From the NCBI GenBank assembly GCA_951406725.2, contig OX597822.1, positions 69,936,001 through 70,000,000 of the forward strand: a stretch of 64,000 nucleotides of DNA. The letters run 5' to 3'. Each line of letters begins with the position of its first letter. The first letter of the stretch is position 1. Positions 12,901 through 15,900 of the stretch are shown here, in pieces. A program made the position numbers and the translations under genes. The stretch comes from Octopus vulgaris. Lineage: Eukaryota. Under the pieces are notes generated by a model. That model saw only the letters and a program-made list of their open reading frames with translations. It was not told where the DNA came from and did no database searches.

Positions 12901-15900
12901 TTTGCCAAACTGCTAAATTATGGAGACGTAAACACACCACACAGACACACAAACATATAAATATGTGTATATATATATATATATATATATATATAAAATA
13001 TTATTAGAGACAAAACCACTATTTTGCAAAACAAACAAGGAAAGACTTAATCAATACATAAAATTTTAATAAATAGTCAAAAAAACTGCCACTACAATTG
13101 TTTCTTGTCTTGATCGACAATCTTCAGGTGGACTTCCAATTTACAAGTCAGTTTCAAATAATTTGAAACTGACTTGTAAATTTGAAGTCCACCTGAAGAT
13201 TGTCGATCAAGACAAGAAACAATTGTAGTGGCGGTTTTTTTGACTATTTATTAAAATTTTATGTATTGATTAAGTCTTTCCTTGTTTGTTTTGCAAAATA
13301 GTGGTTTTGTCTCTAATAATATTTTATAATATTTTACTATAAAATTGGATTTAATCCTAAATCTGATTTTTTCCCTGTAAATTTGGATTTATTCCCTAAT
13401 ATTTATTATTTATATATATATATATATTTATATATATGTGTGTGTGTGTGTGTGTGTGTGTGTGTGTGTGTGTGTGTGTGTGTGTGTGTGTGTGTGTGTG
13501 TGTGTGTGTGTGTGTGTGTGTGTGTGTGTGTGTGTGTGTATATATATATATATTATCAATAATAAAAGGGTAAAATCAATCAATTATTAATTAATTTTAC
13601 CAAGTAGTGCTCAGTATGTAAGAGGACCATTTGAGGTATATTTAAAATATTATGTTATATAATTAGGGTTCAGTAAAATAATTTACTTTACCACACTCAG
13701 TTCAGTGTGTGATAAAGTAAATTATTTTACTGAACCCTAATTATATAACGTATATACATATATATATATATATATATACACACACACACATATATATATA
13801 TACATACATATACACACACACACACACACACACGGCAGGATTCTTTCAGTTTCCACCTATCAAAACCACTCACAAGGCTTTGGTCAGCCCCCAAGGCAAC
13901 AGTAGAAGACACTTGCCCAAGGTGCCACACAATGGGGCTGAACTCGGGACCATATGGTTGGTAAGCAAGCTACTTTATTTCATTTCATTGGCCATACAGA
14001 GGGAGTAGCTTGTGGGTTGGACAAAAAACATTAATCAAATGAGTGATGAAAAGGATGGTATGAATGAGAGAAGGCAAAAGACACCTGCCGATCTTCTGCA
14101 TCTCTAAAACATTGTTTTTCTTTCAAAACAAAAAACAAAACGAGATATTAAACCTCTTACTTCAGTTCTACAGTTACTGGACTTAATAGTCCATTACAAA
14201 TTGAGGCGCTGAGCCTCTTACAAACAATAAACATTTAGGCACTAAAGCCTCTTTATCCTTCCTCCCCGACCATGCTGTATGCCTCCCACAGGCAATGCTC
14301 CAGCTCCTAAACTGGTCCTTCGGGAAGGAGTTCGACACCCTGAATATATCAACTTCCGATATGACCTCCATAGTGACTTGCAAAGGCCAATCCAGGTCTT
14401 TAGTCCAGGGCGTGGGATCCTCCCTCCAACTCTCTAGCTTCCTTAAGAAGCTCTGTATTGCTCCTCCCTTATGGAAGAAGAAAACAAAATCATCTCTCGT
14501 CACTCTGGGAGGGGCCACAGTTTCCTCTGTCGGTGGCACACTTCCCACCAAGGTTTTAGGGCATGCCAGCAGTGTACCATCAACCACTGGCCATGTCCCG
14601 TTCTTTATATTTTTCTTTTTCTCCCCTTTGTTATGGGTGGGTGTGGTACCTCCCGTACCGCAGCTTTAGGGTCCTTCGGTGGGCAACCATTGTTACCCAC
14701 CTTCTTTCTTTTCTTTCGAGGAGGTCTCCACCTCCATCTCTCCCTCCAATGGCAAAGCAGGGTCCGCTACTATTATTAACTGCTCCAGGACCTTACCTTG
14801 ATCCTGGGGACAGTTCTTTTTAATGTGGCTTGGTTTTAGACACAGGTGACACTTGGGGCAGGGGGCATCCCTCAAGAATCACCGGATACCTAGAACCGGC
14901 CATTCTCAAAAAATTGGGGAAAACCAGATTATTGGCTGATTAGGTCCACAGGGTCAAAACCACTTTTGATCCCACCCAATCAGCTGCATGCAGAATTTTA
15001 ACATTTAGGCGCTTGGCTCCACTGCCACCCAGACCCTGGTGGTAGCCCACAGACCCAAGCTCTTGTTAATTTCTTCCCACAATATGTGGGAAGAAACAGA
15101 ATCTTTTGCCCTTCTAAGAGCTGACTCGCGATACTGCGAGCCTCCTCAAGGGTGTCAAATAGCAACCACACTGTTGCATATTTGACACCCCTGGCAATAA
15201 ACTTAATAGTTGGCAGATATTCTGTCAACTATTTTTCAATTTCAGGGAACACCATGATGGTGTCGAGAGCCTTATGCTAATCAGTTTTATCAATGTACAA
15301 AATGTATTTTAAATTCATCACTTTAGTTCAGCCATGTGTAGTTAAGAAGTTAGCTTTGCAATCACGTGGTTTCAGGTTCAGTCCCAATGCATTGCACCTT
15401 GAGCAATGCATTGGGACATTAGTCTTCTACTAATCAATGAATAAATTTGGTAAACAGATAAGGTGGCGAGCTGGCACAAACGTTAGAACACCAGGCGAAA
15501 TGCTTAGTGTTATTCCGTCTGTCTTTATATACTGAGTTAAAATTCTGCCAAGGTCGCCTTTCATCCTTTCAGGGTCGATAAATTAAGTACCAGTTGCGTA
15601 CTGGAGTCTATCTAATCTACTGGCTCCTCAGCCCCAAAATTTCAGGCCTTGTGCCTCGAATAGAAAAGAATTTGGTAGACAGAAATTGTGTGAAAGCCCA
15701 TCACATATACATACATCACGTAATCGACCAGGCTATCAGATGTTGCTACATATCGCTGGTCACAATGCGCTTCGCATTGTTGGTTTGTTTACGTACCCCA
15801 TAACTTAGCAGTTCAGTAAAAGATACCTATAGAATGAGTATCAGATTTATAAAAAAAAAAAGTACTGGGGTTGATTTGTTCAACAAAAATCATTCAAGGT

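Follow-up and report, generated by a model that had tools for sequence, protein, structure and literature searches.

Judged from its sequence, the palindrome at 12992–13328 of the window (the whole stretch of 64,000 nt of Octopus vulgaris DNA analysed here) derives from the 5' UTR of a Penelope-like element (PLE), retrocopied with its intron exactly removed. We give a probability of about 0.78 to the reading that the unit is such a copy and that both strands of a (TA)n target were likely nicked by a reverse transcriptase (RT)-endonuclease, which took one RNA as the template for two copies. This bears on three questions about PLEs: why their introns appear retained, how their palindromes originate, and whether minimal hammerheads cleave in vivo. 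With intact members, a long intron that has alternative donors, and hundreds of insertions that are young, the family makes these questions countable in one genome. The interest of the locus rests on mechanism, and its location in piwi adds little.

The palindrome, its parent element and its splicing

The two arms of the inverted repeat (12992–13159 and 13161–13328) are 168 nt each and 99% complementary, with a 1-nt spacer and two mismatches (13137/13183 and 13087/13233). The first-pass annotation had thus read the arms and the single central base correctly, and its placing of a non-coding unit in (TA)n holds on both sides (left flank 12967–12995; right flank 13411–13437, with (TG)n next). In family coordinates, where q1 is window position 13161 in arm B and 13159 in arm A, arm A (12992–13159, minus strand) is an inverted, spliced pLTR/5' UTR segment that runs from q1 to about q168–172, where it ends at site A and runs into (TA)n. 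Arm B (13158–13410, plus strand) covers q-2 to q250 of the spliced pLTR/5' UTR, ends at site B and shares 98.3% identity with exon 2 of the full-length parent copy L163 across 238 nt. Both sites carry TATAATATT, at q165 for site A and at q255 in the parent for site B, and this motif is able to pair with the target. The arms meet head to head at 13158–13160 with a 2-nt overlap, 5–8 nt downstream of a putative start site at q-7 (Inr-like TC^ACTTC). Between sites A and B lies an unpaired tail of 82 nt (13329–13410, plus strand), which by fold prediction holds a 13-pair stem-loop at 13341–13370.

The palindrome is confirmed as real. For an assembly fold-back artefact one could cite that a repeat-swamped contig alignment over 5900–13430 listed no contig across the palindrome junctions. 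Such an artefact is nevertheless extremely improbable, because the same anatomy occurs at many loci with different junctions (84 other or same loci), while here the arms differ at two positions, end at the A and B sites of the family and have different flanks.

Walking upstream in long copies led to the parent, a single ORF of 840 aa with RT plus a GIY-YIG domain at its C terminus. In these full-length copies the unit corresponds to the 5' UTR, and the parent ATG lies at q307. Among the best 10 of 64 matches to the parent ORF, 8 have no stop, and identity is 98–100%. The copy L163 measures 6327 bp between its two pLTR donors; the parent pLTR holds the hammerhead, and insertions lie in (TA)n. 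The Hydra clade of PLEs is diagnosed (PMC8557442) by an RWK motif, a change of DKG to DKT, CxCX5C, CxxC/CxH around E/N, and the lack of CCHH. The parent ORF has KWK at 43 (K for R of RWK), DKT at 128, YRDD at 359, a CxCX5C linker (CTCRDKSNC, 691), VY...YIG at 711, CxxC (CYLC, 797) and CxH (CRH, 826), and inspection of the unaligned ORF by eye revealed no CCHH motif. By this diagnostic motif set the parent is an intact, multi-copy Hydra-clade PLE, which bears out the earlier suggestion of a PLE origin with an inverted pLTR copy. A Pfam scan of the parent ORF gave nothing significant; among its 40 homologues, many carry PF26215. Residues ~480–600 of the parent protein form an asparagine-rich insert between RT and endonuclease, and an insert of this kind has been described for Adineta vaga Penelope families (PMC3846280).

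The genome-wide copy-number check proposed in the first-pass annotation, a DNA search of the 2.8-Gb genome, returned 962 candidates, and the 40 that were scored are 98–100% identical. Spliced insertions extrapolate to ~280 from exact matches and to ~470 when variants seen on contig C1 are included (17 of 20 extra C1 loci were spliced, the basis of the latter figure), so that by extrapolation the genome holds roughly 300–500. An older subfamily is represented by L023:226–680, which is 84% identical, has the same A/B palindrome with a different hammerhead loop II, and sits 1 kb from a young copy. A separate locus, L162 (G000:C9:50396400–50399600), holds 250-bp units of this family (q112–q363, without hammerhead) arrayed head to head, three in one orientation and nine in the other, with ends still at sites A and B; it looks as though a small circle had been copied repeatedly or in a rolling mode.

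At the donor, the sequence of long copies is CTGACTTG(A/T)AA^GTATGT, then 1.0–1.8 kb of intron, then TTTTAG^ATTGGAAG at the acceptor (^ marks the junction); the intron, GTATGT...TTTTAG, is 1841 nt long in L163 and 992–1592 nt in other copies. The unit reads directly across this junction in both arms. In arm B the parent intron is removed exactly at 13179–13180 on the plus strand (CTGACTTGTAA^ATT(T/G)GAAG), and the junction is mirrored at 13141/13140 on the minus strand in arm A. Exact-pattern counts over the genome gave 456 spliced junctions against 380 unspliced acceptors, with controls at 0. Most of the spliced copies in our census (46 of 63, see below) are 4 nt shorter, an isoform that fits an alternative donor, GTAAGT; this donor allele is found in 62 of the first 100 listed among 236 donors. 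Four loci (L019, L048, L050 and L109) are doubly spliced, the second junction connecting a tandem exon that lies upstream with different AG acceptors. Four haplotypes occur in both spliced and unspliced forms, and a further subfamily (ATTGAAG) also has spliced forms. The exact junctions, the alternative donors and the doubly spliced copies together argue that a sense, spliced RNA was the template, while the spliced forms on several haplotypes and subfamilies imply that RNA from several source loci was reverse-transcribed.

Could an intron-less, non-autonomous master have arisen once and then been amplified in the manner of a SINE or MITE? Some junctions do recur at several loci (L103, L152 and L154; L106, L110, L117 and L133), and short copies could be mobilised again when host introns are read through. 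We consider a single master very unlikely, however, given three junction forms, identical junctions on different haplotypes, several haplotypes that intron-bearing copies also have, the doubly spliced copies and the varied centres.

Two side observations concern the parent intron and its surroundings. A subfamily (L061, L062, L065, L068 and L081) carries a tandem duplication, with a period of ~1.2 kb, that takes in the promoter, exon 1 and some of the intron, and is the source of the doubly spliced copies. The sense strand of the parent introns of L064, L065, L067 and L056 has 236 G against 48 C, and A/G differences outnumber T/C differences in one subgroup and not in the other; in that one subgroup the A/G excess possibly represents A-to-I edits fixed by reverse transcription.

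Priming sites and the origin of the palindrome

The census comprised all 63 spliced insertions listed for contigs C1–C3, where one arm had to carry the exact spliced junction. Of these, 45 are head-to-head pairs of one A and one B arm, none is AA or BB, and the remainder are nine solo A and nine solo B insertions. The same pairing was seen in 25/25 pairs picked for their similarity to the palindrome studied here (itself among them) and in 14/15 further pairs on C1. Overall, 84 of 85 two-arm insertions have one arm ending at ~q170 (A) and the other at ~q250 (B), the sole exception being a B/B pair in the three-arm complex locus L217. At the other end, the 5' end of the more complete arm falls at q-15 to q+5 in 60 of the 63 census insertions; an Inr-like TCACT has been noted in pLTRs (PMC3846280).

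The arms of a pair also agree in their finer details. Minor alleles were common to both arms 107 times and differed 17 times, with 168 expected if the arms were independent. The splice isoform was the same in both arms in 32 of 33 pairs, where ~57% would be expected, and no locus out of 233 (some overlapping) mixes spliced and unspliced arms. Shared alleles and concordant isoforms point to a single template for both arms, and on the isoform concordance we rejected a two-RNA model for most insertions. At L022 the arms are discordant in both isoform and allele; together with L217, this suggests that two RNAs or other routes are used at times.

A spliced retrocopy could also have gained its inverted arm when one cDNA folded back and primed itself, with central deletions afterwards. 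This too would leave alleles and isoforms common to both arms, many centres are short palindromes with microhomology, and antisense templates or self-priming have already been proposed for inverted PLE copies (PMC3846280). We nonetheless consider it unlikely. When the 45 pairs are sorted by their more truncated arm, this is B in 11, A in 10, and the arms are within 15 nt of each other in 24. Fold-back of a B-started cDNA cannot yield the class of 11, where the A arm holds sequence absent from B, and fold-back of an A-started cDNA cannot give the unpaired tail. The nine solo A and nine solo B insertions further show that each site primes alone. Finally, the published version needs an antisense template, which is contradicted by the exact sense splicing of the copies, and an antisense-template origin was rejected on this ground. 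Central deletion after fold-back, truncating either arm, and gene conversion, homogenising the arms, are possible.

The arm ends are most simply read as priming by the two nicked strands on a single RNA, at sites A and B, and our counts favour this pairing over the published antisense/self-priming idea. In the mechanism we propose, transcription would begin at the Inr-like start at q-7, as the 5' ends and the motif suggest, and the element's protein may bind its own spliced mRNA near the start of the ORF. The RT-endonuclease would nick both strands of the (TA)n target and make two copies of one sense, spliced RNA, starting one at site A and the other at site B, after which the two cDNA ends would be joined to form the head-to-head palindrome. 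The PAc protein, a predicted dimer, nicks and extends both strands in vitro and uses two internal RNA start sites, and RNA cleavage is not needed (PMC11167929).

Priming at A and B on one RNA may also account for apparently retained introns. We assembled 24 loci whose UTR runs into the ORF (one array was excluded). Eighteen of these ORF-linked pLTRs have the unspliced acceptor, none is spliced and six have no ribozyme exon; the absence of spliced forms among the 18 with a ribozyme exon has p about 7e-7. On the spliced mRNA the priming sites would lie ~180 and ~260 nt from the cap. With both sites so near the cap, the spliced mRNA should yield only short dead-end palindromes, and mini-palindromes of this kind do appear to be its only products. 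ORF-bearing copies, for their part, would come from unspliced read-through RNA. Dead-end spliced copies alongside productive unspliced ones would explain why PLE introns seem retained, a retention described as of 'significance unknown' (PMC8557442). The dead-end rule is not absolute, since a few spliced copies (L120, L130) extend upstream of the putative start, implying that read-through RNA is sometimes spliced.

Possible hammerhead cleavage and the host gene

A search of the 64-kb window with the pattern CCAC CUGAAGA UUGUC gaucaa GACAA GAAA CAAUUG UA GUGG found exactly two hammerheads, one per arm, both of the minimal type I. The hammerhead of arm B lies at 13189–13231 on the plus strand (predicted cut after 13227, GUA^GUGG), and that of arm A at 13131–13089 on the minus strand (predicted cut after 13093), where it is sense in the piwi pre-mRNA. 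Each has CUGANGA, GAAA, NUH, helices I and II and a palindromic helix III; the latter consists of one pair plus a palindromic loop, and in the predicted cofold CAAUUG pairs between two copies. Position 10.1–11.1 is U-A where the canonical pair is G10.1–C11.1. Older copies have A-U, U-U or A-C there, and some published Hydra hammerheads are also without G10.1–C11.1 (PMC8557442). Diverged copies vary in N7 and loop II and keep the helix II core. An Rfam scan of the window gave no matches at gathering score. The first-pass description of a perfect hammerhead in each arm is therefore right as to one per strand and their positions, but the motif is not canonical; likewise, the ribozyme does have an exact antisense over its core, beyond which the two arm mismatches intervene.

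Nearly all arms (1025 of 1033) have the cleavage-site A before GTGG and thus run through the site, which implies that most templates were uncut. All eight exceptions, which have no A67, start exactly at the predicted 3' cleavage product, and they include one palindrome with both arms beginning there. As proof of cleavage these eight arms are weakened by the equal number of starts (8) at q69, and the signal is the cluster at q66–69 rather than a single position. A further 8, 5 and 6 truncated arms start at the neighbouring positions, which brings the starts at q66–69 to 27 of ~1,060 arms, where ~2.5 would be expected (upper bound ~9), roughly a tenfold excess over a small control of 2 arms over 40 positions on one contig (C1). 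For this count we dropped the ambiguous locus L208 and six point/indel variants. Partner arms of the q66–69 arms start downstream of the site in 10/15 pairs, as against 14/45 in the census (p = 0.03). Given the small control, these numbers suggest that ~2% of templates were cut in vivo by the hammerhead, most others remaining uncut. In Anolis, no reads were found to end at the cleavage site (PMC11167929).

Taken as a whole, a combined account has slightly better than even odds in our estimation. A dimeric RT-endonuclease would prime from both nicked strands on one sense RNA, always at the same two sites. Copying of spliced mRNA, no rarer than that of unspliced RNA, would give only dead-end mini-palindromes, which would resolve intron retention without antisense templates. 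The ~2% of insertions from hammerhead-cut RNA would be genomic evidence of in vivo PLE cleavage at the predicted site.

An identity as a retrozyme-like unit, which the first-pass annotation had offered beside the PLE, was rejected: nearly all arms run through the cleavage site, and none of the 63 census insertions contains head-to-tail tandem units with a hammerhead. The only long array seen, L162, is without the ribozyme.

The unit lies in piwi-like 1, which is encoded on the minus strand (97% to the Octopus bimaculoides exon). Using tblastn with octopus piwi-like 1, we placed its first coding exon at 16031–15957 (ATG at 16025) and the next exon at 10475–10390. The intron between them (10476–15956, minus strand) contains the palindrome, in agreement with the location originally given, at 2.5 kb from either exon. 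Four downstream piwi exons are joined by contigs of two runs from two studies, which we guess to be RNA, and the same contigs continue 110 nt beyond the exons, outside 5900–13430. It had also been anticipated that in the piwi pre-mRNA the ribozyme is transcribed after its own antisense arm and is masked by the hairpin. The order of transcription is as anticipated, and the hairpin is predicted to outcompete the ribozyme (-265 kcal/mol, where the ribozyme region by itself reaches about -7.6). Whether it is masked probably matters little, as one such minimal PLE motif on its own was not cleaved in vitro (PMC4209133). By analogy with inverted Penelope copies, it is plausible that the hairpin is a Dicer/ADAR substrate. 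Some passive editing of it is plausible too, though this would not amount to a function.

That the palindrome has been kept for regulating piwi, whether as dsRNA for Dicer or ADAR or as a masked ribozyme switch, seems to us most improbable. It is the sole 99%-paired hairpin found in the intron and lies in the first coding intron, and siRNAs matched inverted regions of Penelope copies in Drosophila (PMC3681739). Against this, the insertion is young, as its two arm mismatches indicate, and distant from both exons. Seven other inverted pairs (41–139 nt, 78–93%) share the intron, and nothing singles out piwi. The computed chance of a family insertion in a 40-kb gene is ~0.4–1%, from which many genes would be expected to carry one. 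The insertion in piwi is likely incidental, and a role in piwi regulation is unsupported.

Across the piwi introns (window 1–16100) there are 14 inverted repeat pairs of up to 456 nt and 80%, among them 8482–8920 with 10948–11382; they are mostly dispersed repeats and could form edited dsRNA. Elsewhere in the window, a fragment of a Pif1 helicase 2B domain (24884–25435, minus strand), probably a Helitron remnant, adjoins a 166-bp tandem repeat at 25642–26325. Further tandem arrays lie at 7306–7583 (26/52-bp period) and 61914–62281 (184-bp period). From their translations, we take the decayed ORF fragments at 21163–21981 (plus), 16626–17300 (plus), 3800–4060 (minus) and 14183–15228 (minus) to derive from an RTE-type LINE, mariner/Tc1 transposases and a zinc-knuckle retroelement.

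Relation to known elements

A pLTR that is inverted and tailed, carries a hammerhead and sits in (TA)n is the usual anatomy of PLEs. PLE introns have been described as retained (PMC8557442; PMC3846280; PMC2377424), and our search of the PLE literature, which covered a portion of the primary papers, found no spliced retrocopies, twin priming, one-RNA A/B pairing or cleavage-site cluster. With Hydra-clade PLEs, Hydra-1_Obim included, the octopus family has in common the RWK-type motif, DKT, the CxCX5C linker and the C-terminal GIY-YIG with CxxC/CxH, as well as the hammerhead in the terminal repeat, (TA)n targets, the head-to-head inverted copy and an optional tail (PMC8557442). Hydra-1_Obim of Octopus bimaculoides is a different family, whose N-terminus and hammerhead differ when compared by eye. 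Hydra-clade elements are generally <3 kb, a size that is typical and not diagnostic, and have tails of 30–40 nt, whereas the octopus parent unit is ~6.3 kb and the family's tails ~80–90 nt. The asparagine-rich insert, the UTR intron of 1–1.8 kb and the hundreds of spliced mini-copies also set the octopus family apart from those accounts.

Penelope of Drosophila virilis likewise has a 5' UTR intron shortly after an Inr start, with the acceptor just before the hammerhead, and an inverted pLTR that lacks the tail (PMC2377424; PMC4209133). Its 75-bp intron is described as retained, whereas in the octopus family spliced arms make up more than half of those that bear the junction. PAc Poseidon of Anolis, which belongs to a different clade, resembles the octopus family in having two internal RT start sites that define a tail and in nicking and extending both strands with no need for cleavage (PMC11167929). 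It differs in yielding no reads that end at the cleavage site, and the main text of that paper, in the part available, describes neither spliced copies nor a one-RNA origin for head-to-head palindromes. Non-LTR retrozymes are also short, non-coding, pLTR-derived and equipped with a type I hammerhead, but they are head-to-tail tandems (bioRxiv 10.64898/2026.07.22.740005, in the part available), while the octopus units are not tandem, and are spliced. The boundaries of the octopus unit are the start site and the RT start sites, not cleavage sites as in retrozymes.

In processed pseudogenes, exact intron loss marks the template. In L1 twin priming, the other target strand starts another cDNA on the same RNA, and because this second primer anneals at variable internal sites, the outcome is the inversion of a different segment. 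The octopus family, by contrast, has two fixed sites and overlapping arms, and a palindrome results.
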